Shown piece after piece: positions 2,242 to 53,379 of a DNA stretch of 64,000 nt. The notes under the pieces were generated by a model, which searched no databases, was not told the DNA's origin, and saw only the letters and a program-made list of their open reading frames with translations. Every line of letters begins with the position of its first letter. Position 1 is the stretch's first letter. A program made the translations under genes and the position numbers. Origin of the DNA: Candidatus Pacearchaeota archaeon (GTDB lineage Archaea; Nanobdellota; Nanobdellia; Pacearchaeales; GW2011-AR1); the NCBI GenBank assembly GCA_050303855.1, contig JBNLCO010000010.1:124093-188092 (forward strand), read 5' to 3'.

Positions 2242-2949
2242 ATGAATTTCATAAAAAAAGTTGCTGATAAGCATTTTGATGAGTCTGTTCATTTGCAGTT
2301 TCAAAAATTCTCTAAAGGAGAGTTCAGAAATAGGGCTATAATTGAAGCTAAAAATTCTAAAGGAAAATATACAATCAAAACTTCTGCGGAATTCTCCAAT
2401 GAACTCGTTAGAGATGTTGCTGAAAAACTTGGAAGTAATAAATCAAAAATTACAGGAGCGATTGTTTCTACCTCTGATCTAAAGGGAGAGTTAGAATTTA
2501 AAGAAGTTAAGCAATTTCAAGGCGTTAAAAGATATTTGATTGATAGTGAAATGTCGGGCGAGGAGATTATCAAGTTATTGGATAAATTCCCAAAGAATTT
2601 CTTTGCACTTTCTTTCAAATTGGAAGATGGAACTGAACTTAAGATAAAACCCAAAGCTCCTAAATCAGGAAAACCGGGGAAGGGAGAGGAAGCTCCTAAA
2701 GCAGATTTCTGTGTTTTGAAAACCACAGATAAAGATTTAGCAGAAGGATTTATCTTTGAGCAACCAATGTTTAAGACTGCAAAGATTAATCATACTTTCT
2801 TTATTGATAAAATAGAGATACCAGAAGATTTGAAGAGTTCTAAAGATTTTGCAATGATAAGGGAAATGTCAAAAAGAATTGGGAGAATTATAAGAAATGC
2901 TGAAATTGATGATAAAAAGCTTGAGGAAGAATTGAGCTTTGAGGCTTAA
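2242..2949 (+). CDS. hypothetical protein (235 aa), no family recognised
   Basis: Clean ORF with its own TATA-like box. Lys/Glu-rich soluble protein with a central KPKAPKSGKPGKGEEAPK linker. Confidence 0.6.
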   Translation: MNFIKKVADKHFDESVHLQFQKFSKGEFRNRAIIEAKNSKGKYTIKTSAEFSNELVRDVAEKLGSNKSKITGAIVSTSDLKGELEFKEVKQFQGVKRYLIDSEMSGEEIIKLLDKFPKNFFALSFKLEDGTELKIKPKAPKSGKPGKGEEAPKADFCVLKTTDKDLAEGFIFEQPMFKTAKINHTFFIDKIEIPEDLKSSKDFAMIREMSKRIGRIIRNAEIDDKKLEEELSFEA

Positions 2950-3171: not shown

Positions 3172-4128
3172 ATGCCAACAAGAAAATCACCAAGAAAAGG
3201 AAGCTTGCAATTTTGGCCTCGAAAGAGGATCAACAAATTTTTGCCTAGAGTTAACTGGAGTGCTATTAATTCTGATAAGAAATTGAAGGGATTTGTTGGA
3301 TATAAGGCAGGGATGGTTTCTGTTGAAGTTAAGGATTTAACTGCCAATTCAATGACTAAAGATAAGAAGATAATTATTCCGGCTACAGTTATTGAATGTC
3401 CTAAGATGAAAATCTTTTCGGTTAGATTCTACAAAAATGGGGTCGTTAAGAAGGATGTTTTAGCTGAACAATTCGACAAGGAACTTAAGAAAAAGGTTAA
3501 GGTTCCAAAAGAGAATAAATTGAAGCTTGATTCTGTAAAAAGTGAGAATTATGATGATGTTTCTGTTATTGCTTATACTGTTGTTAAGAAAACAGGATTG
3601 AAGAAGAAACCAGATATGGCTGAAATTGGTATTTCAGGTTCAAGTGTTGATGAGAAATTAAGTTTTGTTAAAGAGAATTTGAATAAAGAGTTGAGTGTTA
3701 CGGATTTATTCGCTTCAGGAGATTTAGTTGACTTTAGAGGTTTAACTAAAGGTAAAGGTCTTGTTGGTCCTGTAAAGAGATTTGGAATTACATTAAAAGC
3801 TCATAAGTCGGAGAAAGGTGTTAGAAGACCAGGTAATGTTGGTCCGTGGCATCCTGCAAGAGTTACTTTTAGAATCCCTATGGCAGGTCAATTAGGGAAG
3901 TTTACAAGAGTACATTATAATCAAAAAGTTATTGTAACTGGAAATGATGAAGAAGTTAAGAAATCTTTGAAAGCGATAAAGAACTATGGAAATGTTAACA
4001 TGGATTATGTTATTGTTTCTGGTTCAGTTCAAGGTCCAGCAAAGAGACAAGTGTTTATTACTGCTCCTTTGAGAAAAAGTAAAATGTCTGCAAAGAAGAA
4101 TTATGAATTCGGGAGAATATTGAGATAA
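3172..4128 (+). CDS. rpl3: 50S ribosomal protein uL3
   Basis: N-terminus MPTRKSPRKGSLQFWPRKR and the ...GKGLVGPVKRFG...GPWHPARV motifs; first gene of the S10-like cluster. Confidence 0.95.
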   Translation: MPTRKSPRKGSLQFWPRKRINKFLPRVNWSAINSDKKLKGFVGYKAGMVSVEVKDLTANSMTKDKKIIIPATVIECPKMKIFSVRFYKNGVVKKDVLAEQFDKELKKKVKVPKENKLKLDSVKSENYDDVSVIAYTVVKKTGLKKKPDMAEIGISGSSVDEKLSFVKENLNKELSVTDLFASGDLVDFRGLTKGKGLVGPVKRFGITLKAHKSEKGVRRPGNVGPWHPARVTFRIPMAGQLGKFTRVHYNQKVIVTGNDEEVKKSLKAIKNYGNVNMDYVIVSGSVQGPAKRQVFITAPLRKSKMSAKKNYEFGRILR

Positions 4129-4129
4129 A

Positions 4130-4375
4130 ATGGATATTGGAGAATCAATGGCGAAGAGAAAAATGATTGAAGAATTTAAGAAGTTAGAAATTGTAGCAGA
4201 AGCATTTTCTGAGGTTAAGGGGAATGTTGCTAAAGACAAAGATCTTGGGATGAGGATTGATGAAACAACAGAATTTCATTATAATATTAAAACAAATTAT
4301 GAAGAAGCAAAGGGAAAATTCGTTGGAGAAGATGGAATGCAATATGCTTTTGAAATAAGGAGATATAACGATTAA
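4130..4375 (+). CDS. ORFan A (81 aa) inserted between uL3 and uL4; acidic, no family recognised
   Basis: TAA-A-ATG junctions on both sides, identical to genuine r-protein junctions. By my count 18 D/E versus 14 K/R, so it is not r-protein-like. Confidence 0.6.
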   Translation: MDIGESMAKRKMIEEFKKLEIVAEAFSEVKGNVAKDKDLGMRIDETTEFHYNIKTNYEEAKGKFVGEDGMQYAFEIRRYND

Positions 4376-4376
4376 A

Positions 4377-5216
4377 ATGAAAACTAAAACATACGATTTA
4401 ACAGGGAAAGAAAAAGCAGAAATTGCATTACCCAAAGAATTTAGTTCTAAGGTAAGAGAAGATATTGTTTCTAAAGTTCTTGAAGCTGCAAAGAAACATC
4501 AACCTTACTCTCCAAGTCCTGTTGCAGGAAAACAACATTCTGCCAAAGGAAAGATTGTACATAGAAGACATGTTTGGAGAAGTGGTTATGGTAGAGGAGC
4601 ATCAAGAGTACCAAGAAAAATATTCTCACAGAAAGGTTCAAGATTTAATTGGGAAGCTGCAGAAGTTCCATTCGCAAGAGGCGGTATGAGAGCTCACCCT
4701 CCAAAGATAGAACACTTCTTAAAAGAACTTAAGATCAATAAGAAAGAATTAAAGATTGCTTTTGTATCTGCATTGAGTGCAACAGCTTCTGAAAAATATG
4801 TTGTTGATAAATATGCTACAGTAAATAAATTGAATAAAAAAGTGCCATTCATCTTAACTCTTGGAAATACTGAAAACTTGAAAGTTAAAGATTTACTTAA
4901 TGGTTTGAAAGGTATGCTTGGAGAAGAACTTTACAATATTGCAATAAAGAAAAAATCAATTAGGGCTGGAAAAGGAACAATGAGAGGTAGAAAATACAAA
5001 TCAAATGCAGGTATGCTTTTAGTTGTTGGAAAAGATGAAATTGGAAAAGTAAAAACTAAAATGTTTGAAGTTGTTTCGGCTGGAGAACTTGGAGTTACAG
5101 ATCTTGCCCGAGGAGGATTAGGAAGATTAACTGTTTATACTGAAAATTCTGTTAAAGAATTAGAAAATAAGTTTAATGGTAAAACTGAAAAGAAAGTGGA
5201 GGAAAAGAAAAAATGA
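4377..5216 (+). CDS. rpl4: 50S ribosomal protein uL4
   Basis: Contains ...HQPYSPSPVAGKQHSAKGKIVHRRHVWRSGYGRGASRVPRK...; position in the operon. Confidence 0.95.
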   Translation: MKTKTYDLTGKEKAEIALPKEFSSKVREDIVSKVLEAAKKHQPYSPSPVAGKQHSAKGKIVHRRHVWRSGYGRGASRVPRKIFSQKGSRFNWEAAEVPFARGGMRAHPPKIEHFLKELKINKKELKIAFVSALSATASEKYVVDKYATVNKLNKKVPFILTLGNTENLKVKDLLNGLKGMLGEELYNIAIKKKSIRAGKGTMRGRKYKSNAGMLLVVGKDEIGKVKTKMFEVVSAGELGVTDLARGGLGRLTVYTENSVKELENKFNGKTEKKVEEKKK

Positions 5217-5545
5217 ATAGTGTAGAAATTAAAGTTGTTGAAAATTGGGAAAAACCTGAAGTTTTCAGGACTTTAAAAGAAAAAGATTTGATAAGTGATA
5301 AAGAAGTTGTATTTGAATCCTTCAAGTTGAGAGGAGAAGGAACTTCTTTAATTCATACGCTCCAGAGAGTCAAGCCAGGAATTGTGAAGGTTAAAAAATA
5401 TTATTTTGAATCAGGTAAATTGAGCAGTAACGCAGGAGTGGATTATTGGACCAATTCACTGGATATAGGATATAATCCAGAAGCAAAATCAGATCAAATA
5501 CTTTATGATGCAGAAGATAAATTCCTAAGAGAGGCAGGATTATGA
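5213..5545 (+). CDS. ORFan B (110 aa) inserted between uL4 and uL23; no family recognised
   Basis: ATGA start/stop overlaps at both ends (5213-5216 and 5542-5545). GGAGG lies 10 nt upstream of its ATG (5198-5202). Confidence 0.6.
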   Translation: MNSVEIKVVENWEKPEVFRTLKEKDLISDKEVVFESFKLRGEGTSLIHTLQRVKPGIVKVKKYYFESGKLSSNAGVDYWTNSLDIGYNPEAKSDQILYDAEDKFLREAGL

Positions 5546-6479: not shown

Positions 6480-6848
6480 ATGGAAATGAAATTACAAACA
6501 ACTGGAATAAAGTATGAAAATCTAGTTGGAAAAGGATTAGAACTTTTTTGTGAAAGTGCGGTCAATAAAGATGAAAATGTTGTGGGAAGGTATCTTCCTG
6601 GAATTGAGGGACAAGAGATAACCTATTTAGGAAATTTAGGACATAGATTCGGAGAAAGAGATTTATTTGGATTTGAAGAAGACAATAAATTGACTGTCCT
6701 TGTTGGAAACATAAAAGACATTACTGGAAACAGGGCAACGTTAAGCACCTTTGTTCAAAGCATTTCCCCAAATTTTTACGGAACTGAAAATTTGAGTGAT
6801 GAGATTTTAAAACAATGCAAAGAGATTTTGTCAGGAGTAAAAGAATAA
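6480..6848 (+). CDS. ORFan C (122 aa) inserted between uL2 and uS19; no family recognised
   Basis: TAA-A-ATG junctions on both sides. Gly/Glu-rich, not basic. Confidence 0.6.
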   Translation: MEMKLQTTGIKYENLVGKGLELFCESAVNKDENVVGRYLPGIEGQEITYLGNLGHRFGERDLFGFEEDNKLTVLVGNIKDITGNRATLSTFVQSISPNFYGTENLSDEILKQCKEILSGVKE

Positions 6849-8760: not shown

Positions 8761-9060
8761 ATGGAAATAGATCCAAAAACAGGATTGCCAGTTCAGGCAA
8801 TGGAGTGGGAAGACCTTGCAAAGGGTTCCCAAAAAATACGGGTAACGACCGATAAAAAAAGATACGGAAAGATCGTTACTCTAGTGAGTGGTTTCGACAA
8901 AGGAATCGACATAAAGAAAACCGCAAAGGCATTGAAGAATGAACTTGCGTGTGGCGGGACCTTTAAGGACGATGCAGTTGAACTGCAAGGAGACCACACA
9001 AAGAAAGTAAAGCAAGTCCTTGTAAAAATGGGATTTGACGAAAGCTCCATAGAAGACTGA
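8761..9060 (+). CDS. translation initiation factor SUI1 (aSUI1/eIF1 family)
   Basis: 99 aa, ...IRVTTDKKRYGKIVTLVSGFD...LKNELACGGTFKDDAVELQGDH... is the typical SUI1 core. Confidence 0.9.
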   Translation: MEIDPKTGLPVQAMEWEDLAKGSQKIRVTTDKKRYGKIVTLVSGFDKGIDIKKTAKALKNELACGGTFKDDAVELQGDHTKKVKQVLVKMGFDESSIED

Positions 9061-9078
9061 AGAGGTGAAAAATAAAAA

Positions 9079-9423
9079 ATGGAAAGTAAGAAAATGAAAA
9101 AAACAGAAGTAAAAGAATCAAAAATAGTTGGAACTGAAAAGAGTATAAACCCAAGAGGAAAGATCTTCGAGGGAGTTGTAACAGCAAAGTTCCACAAGAG
9201 AATAACAATCGAATTCGAAAGAATGGTTTATATTAGAAAGTATGAAAGATATGCAAAGTCGAAGACAAAAATCCATGCAAGACTCCCAGTTTCAATGGAA
9301 AACGAAGTTAATGTTGGAGATTTGATAAGAGTTCAAGAGTGTAGACCTTTAAGTAAGATAATCCATTTCATCGTGGTTAAGAAATTAAAAGATGCTTCAG
9401 AAATTTTAGGAGGAAAGAAATAA
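9079..9423 (+). CDS. rps17: 30S ribosomal protein uS17
   Basis: Contains ...RGKIFEGVVTAKFHKRITIEFERMVYIRKYERYAKSKTKIHA...VGDLIRVQECRPLSK... Confidence 0.92.
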   Translation: MESKKMKKTEVKESKIVGTEKSINPRGKIFEGVVTAKFHKRITIEFERMVYIRKYERYAKSKTKIHARLPVSMENEVNVGDLIRVQECRPLSKIIHFIVVKKLKDASEILGGKK

Positions 9424-11493: not shown

Positions 11494-11760
11494 ATGGCAA
11501 ATAAAATAACTTTAAAGAATAGGGAGAAATTGAGGGAAGAGCTTGAGAAGTTAGTTGTACAAGTTGATGAGATAAACGACTTCATGGGGCAGTTACCTCA
11601 TAACAATCATGGGCAGGCAACTAGGAGCTTAAACCCTAAGAAAGGTGAATATTTAAGTCACTTTGATGGAAATAGCGAAGGCATAGTTGGAAAATATCGT
11701 TCAAAAAATGGAGAGGTTTATACTATTAGCGTATCAAAAGAATACGGAGGTGGAAAATAA
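11494..11760 (+). CDS. ORFan D (88 aa) inserted between uL5 and uS14; no family recognised
   Basis: TAA-A-ATG junctions on both sides. N-terminal helical K/E segment, then PHNNHGQ and a C-terminal EYGGGK. Confidence 0.6.
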   Translation: MANKITLKNREKLREELEKLVVQVDEINDFMGQLPHNNHGQATRSLNPKKGEYLSHFDGNSEGIVGKYRSKNGEVYTISVSKEYGGGK

Positions 11761-15523: not shown

Positions 15524-15742
15524 GTGTCCGAGTACTATAAGGGCAAAAAAATTAATGGCGAGCTTATTTGCGGAGTGAGTGATCAGGGAAACTACAATCC
15601 TATAATTACAACCGTTTCAAAGTCAGAGGACGAGAATTTAAGGAATACTTATGTTCTCAAAGAAGACATCCTTGAGTTTGTCAAGGCCGATCCGCTAACA
15701 GACAAACAAGCTAGAAATTACATAAACAAATCAAAAAGATAA
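15524..15742 (+). CDS. ORFan E (72 aa, GTG start) inserted between uL30 and uL15; no family recognised
   Basis: TGA-A-GTG junction upstream and TAA-A-ATG downstream. Sequence MSEYYKGKKINGELICGVSDQGNYNPIITTVSK... Confidence 0.5.
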   Translation: MSEYYKGKKINGELICGVSDQGNYNPIITTVSKSEDENLRNTYVLKEDILEFVKADPLTDKQARNYINKSKR

Positions 15743-51443: not shown

Positions 51444-51531
51444 TGCGCGGACCGGGGATCGAACCCGGATCAACTGGTCTCTTCAGACAACCTGTGGAAG
51501 CCAGTTATTCTAACCATTAAACTATCCACGC
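51444..51531 (-). tRNA. tRNA-Gly(UCC) with a 16-nt intron at the canonical 37/38 position
   Basis: Manual fold. Acceptor GCGTGGA/TCCGCGC plus discriminator A73; D arm GTTT-AATGGTTA-GAAT; anticodon stem ACTGG/CCAGT; loop CTTCCA|intron CAGGTTGTCTGAAGAG|A; T arm CCGGG-TTCGATC-CCCGG. No encoded CCA. Confidence 0.85.
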
Positions 51532-51944: not shown

Positions 51945-52020
51945 ACGCCCGAGACAGGATTTGAACCTGCGACCTATTCCTTAGGAGGGAATCGCTCTAA
52001 TCCAGGCTGAGCTACCCGGG
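51945..52020 (-). tRNA. tRNA-Arg(CCU)
   Basis: Manual fold: GCCCGGG-TA-GCTC-AGCCTGGATTA-GAGC-G-ATTCC-CTCCTAA-GGAAT-AGGTC-GCAGG-TTCAAAT-CCTGT-CTCGGGC-G. Confidence 0.88.
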
Positions 52021-52104
52021 CAATTGTTCTCAGAACAAGAAAAGGAGATTTAAATGTTATGCAAGGAACTAAATCTTTAATAATAAGGCTTTAGATGCGA
52101 AATA

Positions 52105-52920
52105 ATGGTTACAAAGAACATCATATCTGACTATGAAATTGAAAAAGGTAGGAAAGTTCTTGAAAACCACCTTGTTTACCCTTTAACAAAAGAAGGAGCA
52201 TTTGAATCAGGATTGTGGTGCATAAGCAGTCAGGCAACACCTTGGGAAATGGCCTCCAACATAATCTATAAACTTAGGGAAAATTCTTATCCAGGAGACC
52301 CTCATGCAAAAAAGAAGATTTCTCGGATGGAAACTCTTAAGGATGTAGGAGAAGTTAACAAGTCTGCTAAAGAAGCGGGATGGAGGTTTGCAAAGGGAAA
52401 TAGATTCAACGATTTTATTAATTATTTCTCAAAAGAGGAAATATCTTCAAAGGACTGGCACTATGAAGTTAGAGATGCCAATAATGAATATAGAAAACAA
52501 ATTGTGAAGGATGTTGGGTGGCTAGGCTTGAAGACTTTCTCATTTTGGAACATCTGTTTGGGAGGAAAAGATTTTCTTGCATTAGATGTATGGATTCTAA
52601 AAGATCTTAAGAAATTAGGTTTAGATATAAAAGAGGAATATGTTGTAGCTCAGAGTAGGAATGTGGGAAAACAAAAAGTAAGGAAGACCCCTAGGGAAAA
52701 AGAATATTGTAAGGTAGAAAACGAAGCAAGAGAATTATTTTCTAAAGATAAAAGATTCCTACAAGAAGATGGAAAGGTCGACCTTGCTTTAGTAGATAGT
52801 GTTTTATGGTGGAGAGGTGCAAACAGAGGTACTTTGTATCAGCAGTCTCTTTTTGAAGAAGAAGTACTTTTAGAAATGCCTTATCAAAATATGCGGAGAA
52901 CAGGATTCGAACCTGCGTAG
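52105..52920 (+). CDS. HhH-GPD-superfamily DNA glycosylase candidate (Ogg2-type 8-oxoguanine glycosylase/AP-lyase-like)
   Basis: The pattern parallels archaeal Ogg as I recall it: ...GLWCISSQATPWE..., ...VGWLGLKTFSFWNICLGGKDFLALDVWILKDL... (HhH with Lys, then Asp), ...LALVDSVLWW... The last 29 nt overlap tRNA-Leu on the opposite strand. Confidence 0.45.
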   Translation: MVTKNIISDYEIEKGRKVLENHLVYPLTKEGAFESGLWCISSQATPWEMASNIIYKLRENSYPGDPHAKKKISRMETLKDVGEVNKSAKEAGWRFAKGNRFNDFINYFSKEEISSKDWHYEVRDANNEYRKQIVKDVGWLGLKTFSFWNICLGGKDFLALDVWILKDLKKLGLDIKEEYVVAQSRNVGKQKVRKTPREKEYCKVENEARELFSKDKRFLQEDGKVDLALVDSVLWWRGANRGTLYQQSLFEEEVLLEMPYQNMRRTGFEPA

Positions 52921-52975
52921 GCACTAAGCCATAAGAGCCTTAATCTTACCCATTTGACCACTCTGGCATCTCCGC
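52892..52975 (-). tRNA. type-II tRNA-Leu with an apparent anticodon AAG
   Basis: Manual fold: GCGGAGA-TG-CCA-GAGTGGTCAAA-TGG-G-TAAGA-TTAAGGC-TCTTA-(variable arm TGGCTTAGTGCCTAC)-GCAGG-TTCGAAT-CCTGT-TCTCCGC-A73. Confidence 0.75.
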
Positions 52976-53263: not shown

Positions 53264-53379
53264 TAAGACGGCCATAGTAGCGATGGTTCCACCTGGTCTC
53301 TTTCCGAACCCAGAAGTTAAGCATCCTACGTTGTTACCGGTACTGTCCTGCAAGATGGGAAAGTAACAAGCTGTCCTAC
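53264..53379 (+). rRNA. rrf: 5S rRNA (ends approximate to within about 4 nt)
   Basis: GACGGCCATAGTAGCGATGGTTCCACCTGGTCTCTTTCCGAACCCAGAAGTTAAGCATCC...GGGAAAGTAACAAGCTGTCC. It has the conserved CCGAAC..GAAGTTAAGC loop region, and the terminal helix GACGGC/GCTGTC pairs. Confidence 0.88.

Follow-up and report, generated by a model that had tools for sequence, protein, structure and literature searches.

The S10-spc cluster of ribosomal protein genes has a textbook frozen gene order and is for that reason used as a phylogenetic marker set. The subject of this report is ORFan A, an open reading frame (ORF) of 81 codons that lies between the uL3 and uL4 genes in such a cluster of a DPANN archaeon (Candidatus Pacearchaeota archaeon, contig JBNLCO010000010.1). 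The whole stretch of DNA analysed, 64,000 nucleotides with 33% G+C, is referred to below as the window. It contains an archaeal-type S10-spc cluster, uL3 through SecY. With moderate confidence, ORFan A is read here as a real, coding accessory cassette at the uL3-uL4 junction of this superoperon, belonging to a clade-wide pool of very diverse and mostly orphan small ORFs that come and go, replace one another and change position among the start-codon junctions. An earlier note on the same DNA, made from the sequence alone, had described ORFan A as an acidic, translationally coupled protein gene. Because there are five such ORFs in the window and approximately 145 in relatives, and because the uL3-uL4 slot is variable, the question has changed from whether ORFan A encodes a new ribosomal partner of uL3 or uL4 to how a hypervariable operon cassette is to be understood.

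Phage morons are additional genes found among the conserved ones of lambdoid prophages; they carry their own promoter and terminator and lie in the intergenic DNA of mobile genomes. The cassettes described here resemble morons in being unrecognised accessory genes that are present or absent between the same conserved genes and differ from genome to genome. ORFan A differs from them in that it is found in a core cellular operon. Because its junctions are one base each, it has no room for a promoter or terminator of its own, and reading of the sequence finds no run of five or more T residues inside it. Integron cassettes are promoterless single ORFs that use an upstream promoter, are diverse and largely orphan and are gained and lost as units, all of which is also true of the ORFan A class. 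However, no attC-like inverted repeat or structured element is found at the 3' end of ORFan A, there is no integrase among the genes annotated around the operon and no attI was seen. Furthermore, integrons use one attI site, whereas the cassettes here are found at many junctions of an essential operon. Freestanding homing endonuclease genes sit between conserved genes as well, for example in T-even phages. They are comparable to the cassettes in being small, intercalated, patchy in close relatives and able to move between sites. No HNH, GIY-YIG, LAGLIDADG, PD-(D/E)xK or other nuclease domain is detected by Pfam, PHROGs or PADLOC in ORFan A or the small cassettes.

Two further comparisons concern operon structure. 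The non-ribosomal genes of the archaeal S10-spc cluster (SUI1/aIF1 and Rpp29) are, like ORFan A, embedded and co-expressed in the same operon. These genes belong to conserved archaeal families, whereas ORFan A is found in a single genome and its slot is hypervariable. Experiments in Haloferax volcanii established strict termination-reinitiation coupling at junctions of the type seen here (Huber et al. 2019, PMC6728339). The coupled cistrons of that study share with ORFan A a co-directional arrangement, a close stop and start codon and a Shine-Dalgarno-like motif in the upstream coding sequence. They concern the expression of neighbouring genes, however, and not hypervariable orphan inserts, and for ORFan A coupling is a prediction.

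The term junction orphan cassette is used in this analysis for an ORF of approximately 50-140 amino acids (aa) that fills the gap between consecutive ribosomal genes, is anchored by start codons at both ends, belongs to no known family and occupies a slot in which close relatives have nothing or another ORF. ORFan A has all of these properties. The class consists of accessory cassettes between conserved genes; it stands out for its position in this operon, for seamless coupling and for the absence of any mobility signature. Such inserts are apparently undescribed so far. No account of them in DPANN ribosomal operons was found in the literature, of which coverage was incomplete, such that an earlier description is possible. 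A published comparison of ribosomal protein clusters that mentions DPANN does not report them.

ORFan A and its immediate surroundings in the window are as follows:

3172..4128, + strand: uL3, the cistron upstream of ORFan A (Pfam PF00297, E-value: 3.6e-56)
4112..4115, + strand: Shine-Dalgarno-like GGAG in the last uL3 codons, 14 bases before the ORFan A ATG (from the sequence; putative function)
4126..4132, + strand: upstream junction TAAAATG, with the uL3 stop, one base and the ORFan A start (from the sequence)
4130..4375, + strand: ORFan A coding sequence, 81 aa plus stop, the cassette (from the ORF list, codon score, shuffles and protein searches)
4359..4362, + strand: Shine-Dalgarno-like GGAG (in AAGGAGA) in the last ORFan A codons, 14 bases before the uL4 ATG (from the sequence; putative function)
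4373..4379, + strand: downstream junction TAAAATG, with the ORFan A stop, one base and the uL4 start (from the sequence)
4377..5216, + strand: uL4, the cistron downstream of ORFan A (Pfam PF00573, E-value: 5.5e-17)

ORFan A is a genuine protein-coding gene. It starts with ATG, and the position and 81-aa sequence given for it earlier match the ORF list exactly. Among 20,000 mononucleotide shuffles of its 243 bases, just one leaves the frame free of stops. When scored by a codon model built from 29 other window genes, ORFan A has an in-frame log-likelihood of 0.357 per codon, compared with a mean of 0.362 +/- 0.090 for true genes taken over 81-codon windows. The five other frames score from -0.03 to -0.96. 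G is found at codon position 1 in 42% of codons. The region has no Rfam match at E-values up to 1, RNA folding of positions 4100-4400 gives no significant structure (z-score -1.64) and no meaningful direct or inverted repeats flank ORFan A (inverted repeats are of chance length only, 10-14 nucleotides [nt]). A non-coding explanation of the region is therefore rejected. An assembly from a separate sequencing run (Logan SRR36185838, locus L001) is identical to the window at every base over the approximately 14 kb that they have in common.

The ORFan A protein is acidic (18 Asp + Glu versus 14 Lys + Arg) with an isoelectric point (pI) of 5.06. The contrast with very basic neighbours that had been drawn earlier is borne out, as uL3 has a pI of 10.2 and uL4 of 10.1, and all ribosomal proteins of the cluster fall between 8.7 and 11. 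The grand average of hydropathy (GRAVY) is -0.82. The sequence has no Cys and, by our count, one His, and inspection of it reveals no signal peptide, membrane segment or hydrophobic stretch. A single-sequence AlphaFold model predicts a helix at residues 3-29 and four strands, which would agree with the N-terminal helix and beta-like segments proposed in the earlier note, yet the confidence of this model is low (predicted local distance difference test [pLDDT] score of 53). A Foldseek search of the model against the PDB returns nothing with an E-value below 0.1, and template modelling (TM) scores do not exceed 0.42.

ORFan A is also an orphan. A word-indexed search of 5.8 billion protein clusters and an exhaustive phmmer (HMMER) search of 1.84 billion representatives both return self-matches only. 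The protein has no family in Pfam or NCBIfam at E-values up to 1 and no match in PHROGs or PADLOC. No viral homolog is found in IMG/VR or, using tblastn, among phage records. Nothing significant is found among PDB sequences, ribosome structures included, such that ORFan A has no match to a known ribosomal protein family in Pfam, NCBIfam or the PDB. One PDB hit, to a Rhs/YD-repeat protein over ORFan A residues 40-79, was discarded as not significant (E-value: 0.09). A toxin-antitoxin or known defence component was likewise considered and rejected, with both PADLOC and Pfam empty and both neighbours ribosomal. No relatives of ORFan A are found in the all-frame translated DNA of 164 related loci. 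Its DNA gives nothing in blastn and tblastx searches against the relatives and the whole window, and is accordingly no frame-shifted copy or duplicate of neighbouring DNA or of the ORFs that occupy the slot in relatives. Comparison with 12 cassette families and all single cassettes using hhalign gives probabilities of at most 1.4%. A likeness seen by eye between the beta-hairpin region of ORFan A and another ORF of the window (cassette D, below) is unsupported (blastp E-value: 0.11; hhalign: 0.2%). The earlier note had held two observations jointly against a real gene, namely the lack of a homolog in any relative and statistics like those of non-coding sequence. Homologs are indeed lacking, but the statistics are those of coding sequence, and the gene therefore stands.

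The junctions of ORFan A have the sequence TAA-A-ATG at both ends, as had been noted earlier. By our count from coordinates, 16 of the 28 junctions of the operon consist of a stop codon, one nucleotide and a start codon, and 6 are ATGA overlaps. TAA-A-ATG is the prevailing junction type of the operon and is not peculiar to ORFan A. Because the GGAG near its end has the same spacing to the following ATG as the GGAG of uL3, ORFan A appears to carry the initiation context of uL4. The earlier description of ORFan A as translationally coupled is consistent with these coupling-type junctions at both ends, from which coupling itself is predicted.

The relatives were examined using loci around uL3 homologs from species-representative genomes, metagenomes and an exact protein look-up, with ribosomal genes mapped by tblastn. 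The clade set comprises 101 loci, some duplicated between collections, with uL3 identities of 50-88% to the window. The closest uL3 proteins and loci carry DPANN labels (Woesearchaeota, Pacearchaeota or Nanoarchaeota). The uL3-uL4 slot is occupied in 25 of 74 loci, and the occupants represent 17 mutually unrelated families. The search for an ORF between rpl3 and rpl4 in relatives that the earlier note had suggested thus does find ORFs, none of them related to ORFan A. The nearest relatives (L002, L006 and L086; uL3 87-88% identical) carry a family beginning MRYEIDE in this slot, as does L004. Three other unrelated ORFs are found there in L003, L005 and L087, and none in L007 and L023. No similarity to ORFan A is found in any of these occupants. 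Even within the lineage that shares this ribosome, therefore, relatives with 81-88% identical uL3 have other ORFs in the slot or none. An empty slot takes the form of an ATGA overlap of uL3 with uL4 in L007, L009, L018 and others, and of TAAAATG in L023 and L014. By our own comparison, the window differs from an empty TAAAATG site by one extra unit of 247 nt, made up of the ORF and TAAA.

One of these loci requires comment. L018 (JAHYJW010000002.1) is deposited as "Patescibacteria group bacterium" and has an archaeal-type uL3-to-uL6 cluster with a uL3 63% identical to that of the window. This bin is probably mislabelled or contaminated.

Inserts of this kind are found throughout the clade set. 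A gap-filling ORF of at least 40 aa is present in 147 of 794 canonical junctions, and 34 of the 49 loci that have five or more junctions contain at least one. The first 89 inserts have a median length of 101 aa (interquartile range 84-109), and their pI values are evenly spread across acidic, neutral and basic. At either end, the great majority of junction distances are -4 or +1. The survey assigned gene starts heuristically, and some overlaps of -17 to -29 nt probably reflect wrongly chosen start codons. With the exception of four DEDD exonucleases, one HAD hydrolase and one missed uL22, these 89 inserts have no match in Pfam, PHROGs or PADLOC. A set of 145 cassettes forms 88 sequence clusters, 63 of which are singletons, and a profile of the largest cassette family recovers one further member in 5.8 billion clusters. 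Among archaea outside the clade (uL3 identity below 50%), gaps are almost all located where a canonical gene is expected, and are taken to be genes missed by the queries (uL29, uL23, uL22 and the RNase P protein). Non-DPANN archaea showed no inserts that lacked such an explanation.

The window itself has four further gap-filling ORFs between ribosomal protein genes, making five with ORFan A:

5213..5545, + strand: cassette B, 110 aa, uL4-uL23 slot, ATGA overlaps at both ends (from the ORF list and Pfam/NCBIfam scans)
6480..6848, + strand: cassette C, 122 aa, uL2-uS19 slot, TAAAATG at both ends (from the ORF list and Pfam/NCBIfam scans)
11494..11760, + strand: cassette D, 88 aa, uL5-uS14 slot, TAAAATG at both ends (from the ORF list)
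15524..15742, + strand: cassette E, 72 aa, GTG start, uL30-uL15 slot (from the ORF list)

The corresponding slot of L006, L086 and L144 contains a homolog of cassette B (40% aa identity), for which the ratio of nonsynonymous to synonymous substitution rates (dN/dS) is 0.85. Cassette D is homologous to an ORF in a different slot, uS17-uL14, of L030 (33% identity over 85 aa, E-value: 1.4e-11). Neither cassette C nor cassette E has a homolog in any of the loci compared. Cassette E has the weakest coding score of the five (0.03). The uS13-uS4-uS11-RpoD cluster of the window contains no inserts.

Turnover of the cassettes is most evident in L005 and L007, which are different assemblies; an L005-like arrangement recurs in L150. 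The uL3 proteins of these two loci are 100% identical, their ribosomal proteins have a mean identity of 97% and their flanking DNA is 96-98% identical. They differ at seven junctions, five by the presence or absence of an insert and two by different ORFs in the same slot. At each presence/absence site, the insert follows directly on the ATG(A) found in the empty version and closes with a new ATG(A), such that the start codon lies within a direct repeat of 4-9 nt. Cassettes also change slots. Twelve homologous cassette pairs, including that of window cassette D, occupy different junctions, and L030 has paralogs at eS4-uL5 and uL2-uS19 of one operon (42% identity, E-value: 8e-20).

A basic mini-ORF of 19 codons, MKANQRFSSIRNKPRRYFR, bordered on either side by ATGA, recurs at two or three junctions of one operon with approximately 90-97% nucleotide identity between copies:

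L005, 12129-12188: 19-codon mini-ORF
L005, 16431-16490: 19-codon mini-ORF
L007, 11941-12000: 19-codon mini-ORF
L007, 16072-16131: 19-codon mini-ORF
L007, 18769-18828: 19-codon mini-ORF

In our reading, the first codons of this mini-ORF resemble the start of uL24, which suggests junction-spanning duplications.

The dN/dS values of ten homologous cassette pairs range from 0.11 to 1.29 and are at least 0.36 in eight of the ten. In the same genome pairs, the flanking ribosomal proteins have values of 0-0.2 (eight genome pairs with unsaturated dS), save for the uL4 of L005/L007 (0.33). Aa identity is 24-40% for the cassettes versus 82-97% for their neighbours. Constraint on these sister cassettes is relaxed. 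It is safe to state that the cassettes evolve at several times the rate of their neighbours while keeping frames and junctions intact.

The mechanism suggested for ORFan A would operate in the following way. Ribosomes ending at the uL3 TAA would reinitiate one base further on and translate the 81 codons of ORFan A. They would then stop at the ORFan A TAA and reinitiate on uL4, for which the last codons of ORFan A would provide a Shine-Dalgarno-like GGAG, spaced as is that provided by the uL3 tail for ORFan A. Because of this relay, ORFan A would be made in about the same amounts as uL3 and uL4. A nonsense mutation, frameshift or imprecise deletion in ORFan A would uncouple uL4 and the approximately 20 essential cistrons behind it. 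Since uL4 and the later cistrons would rely on the relay, the open frame and junctions would be held by selection. The aa sequence of a cassette would be weakly constrained and would turn over fast. Such a relay is consistent with intact frames, with rapid substitution and with the orphan status. A cassette could be removed only by an exact deletion between the short repeats at the start codons, and the empty sites look like the product of such a deletion. Insertion may have occurred by microhomology at the start codon, and possible origins include exchange between strains by recombination in the conserved flanking DNA and ectopic events at junctions of near-identical sequence.

As the content of the slot varies among relatives, any function of the ORFan A protein would be dispensable and lineage-specific, and such a role is more likely than a core ribosomal one. 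A real function, for example a ribosome-associated or chaperone-like one for the basic neighbours, is nevertheless a candidate, because the composition of ORFan A is gene-like and one sister family is confidently modelled as folded.

Several points weigh against this interpretation of ORFan A as an accessory cassette held in place by coupling. All sequences compared are metagenome assemblies, and approximately 20 kb was examined per relative. No cassette homologs are found outside the operon in the approximately 20 kb sampled per genome, an extent at which the restriction of cassettes to this operon is not proven. No mobility machinery or recombination site was found. The cassette dN/dS values come from few pairs, several of them with saturated dS, and describe sister cassettes and not ORFan A, and both reinitiation and retention by coupling are predictions from nucleotide sequence. 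The codon score of ORFan A is the most gene-like among the five window cassettes. Lastly, a small beta-barrel is modelled with confidence for one sister family (pLDDT 85.9), which argues that at least some cassettes are selected as proteins and are not mere spacers.

Of the other explanations, the one that survives best is that ORFan A is a translated spacer without protein function, a remnant of inserted or duplicated DNA that is selected for its frame, its junctions and its Shine-Dalgarno-like motif. This is unlikely. In its favour, ORFan A is a total orphan with a low-confidence structural model, dN/dS is close to 1 in several of the sister cassettes, the class as a whole strictly retains its frames and junctions and the 19-codon mini-ORF has been copied between junctions in L005 and L007. 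The codon and positional composition of ORFan A, however, is that of true genes, which is unexpected under stop-avoidance drift unless the ORF is very young. Nor do the narrow size range of the cassettes (interquartile range 84-109 aa), the sister family with a confident fold or the several cassette pairs with dN/dS of 0.36-0.6 favour a spacer, and no source sequence for ORFan A is found in the window or in relatives.

ORFan A could instead be a lineage-specific ribosome-associated factor, for example an acidic protein that acts as dedicated chaperone of basic uL3 or uL4 or assists their assembly, and that coupling would supply in matching amounts. Eukaryotes have dedicated chaperones for both proteins (Rrb1 for uL3 and Acl4 for uL4), whose logic such a factor would parallel. 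The ORFan A protein is acidic (pI 5.06). No homology between ORFan A and a known chaperone is detected in Pfam or among PDB sequences, and we consider this explanation quite improbable.

Slightly more doubtful again is a small protein related to conflict (an anti-toxin, anti-viral or host-interaction factor) that uses the strongest constitutive operon and evolves in an arms race. DPANN archaea are widely regarded as dependent on host cells, and the cassette class is extremely diverse, with turnover at the strain level and high dN/dS. Against this, no small cassette has a PADLOC or PHROGs match and no viral homologs of ORFan A are found in IMG/VR or phage records. ORFan A also has no partner gene, both of its neighbours being ribosomal protein genes, and it has no signal peptide or membrane segment (GRAVY of -0.82).

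That ORFan A is not a gene at all but a chance open frame in a spacer or an assembly artefact might be suspected of a short ORF without homologs from a metagenome-assembled genome, but is so improbable that it can be set aside, given that a single shuffle in 20,000 stays open, that only the annotated frame scores as coding, that ORFan A fills its gap to the base, that the Logan assembly is identical over the shared approximately 14 kb and that the same architecture is seen in dozens of independent assemblies.

The accessory cassette interpretation can be taken further. The start-codon junctions of the superoperon would then be insertion sites for a new kind of mobile cassette that is promoterless, has no recombinase or repeat, uses ATG(A)/TAAAATG microhomology and is protected by coupling. 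The fast-evolving proteins encoded by such cassettes, that of ORFan A included, would act on the ribosome or its neighbouring proteins, for example as lineage-specific modulators or protectors where there is conflict with hosts, viruses or ribosome-targeting toxins. This extension is speculative and distinctly unlikely.

A number of other features were observed in these loci. In one subclade, the uL4-uL23 slot contains a DEDD-type 3'-5' exonuclease of approximately 200-245 aa (Pfam RNase_T/Rv2179c-like, with E-values down to 1e-12):

L013, 3200-3856: DEDD exonuclease, uL4-uL23
L015, 11951-12571: DEDD exonuclease, uL4-uL23
L017, 4702-5295: DEDD exonuclease, uL4-uL23
L019, 11788-12525: DEDD exonuclease, uL4-uL23

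ORFs of approximately 199-219 aa are present in the same slot of L094, L095, L109, L115, L118, L122, L130 and L153. An unassigned ORF of 105-106 aa is found between the P0 (uL10) and P1 stalk genes in L001 (712..1029) and L005 (1114..1434). These two ORFs have the C-terminal motif QTLQNK..EGGN in common (blastp E-value: 6e-4), from which it follows that the other ribosomal operon also has an extra cistron.

Within the window operon, SUI1 is located at 8761..9060 and is followed by uS17 after an 18-nt gap (9060..9079), a near-direct adjacency that is typical of this clade. In other archaea (SUI1-uS17 gaps of L033-L085) this position has an ORF of approximately 90 aa, presumably the RNase P protein Rpp29, which is absent at the corresponding position of the window. 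Directly upstream of uL3 is an ORF of 235 aa (2242..2949, + strand) that has no Pfam match. L005 has an ORF of the same length at that place and L003 has one of 222 aa, and the 235-aa ORF looks like a conserved clade-specific gene. The window also contains a 5S rRNA gene (53264..53379, + strand) and three tRNA genes (51444..51531, 51946..52021 and 52892..52975, - strand), and has no 16S or 23S gene.

Taken singly, ORFan A is an orphan gene that is probably made in ribosomal-protein amounts, and its immediate value is modest. In these archaea the S10-spc cluster is a hot spot, with an orphan mini-gene at approximately one fifth of its junctions that can differ between genomes with identical uL3. 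If the interpretation given here is true, the operon would be a natural system for the study of new genes that persist via translational coupling, with a possible ratchet that keeps frames open regardless of protein function. It would also hold a large hidden pool of small proteins, probably highly expressed, and there may be consequences in these lineages for binning by synteny and for the extraction of marker genes.

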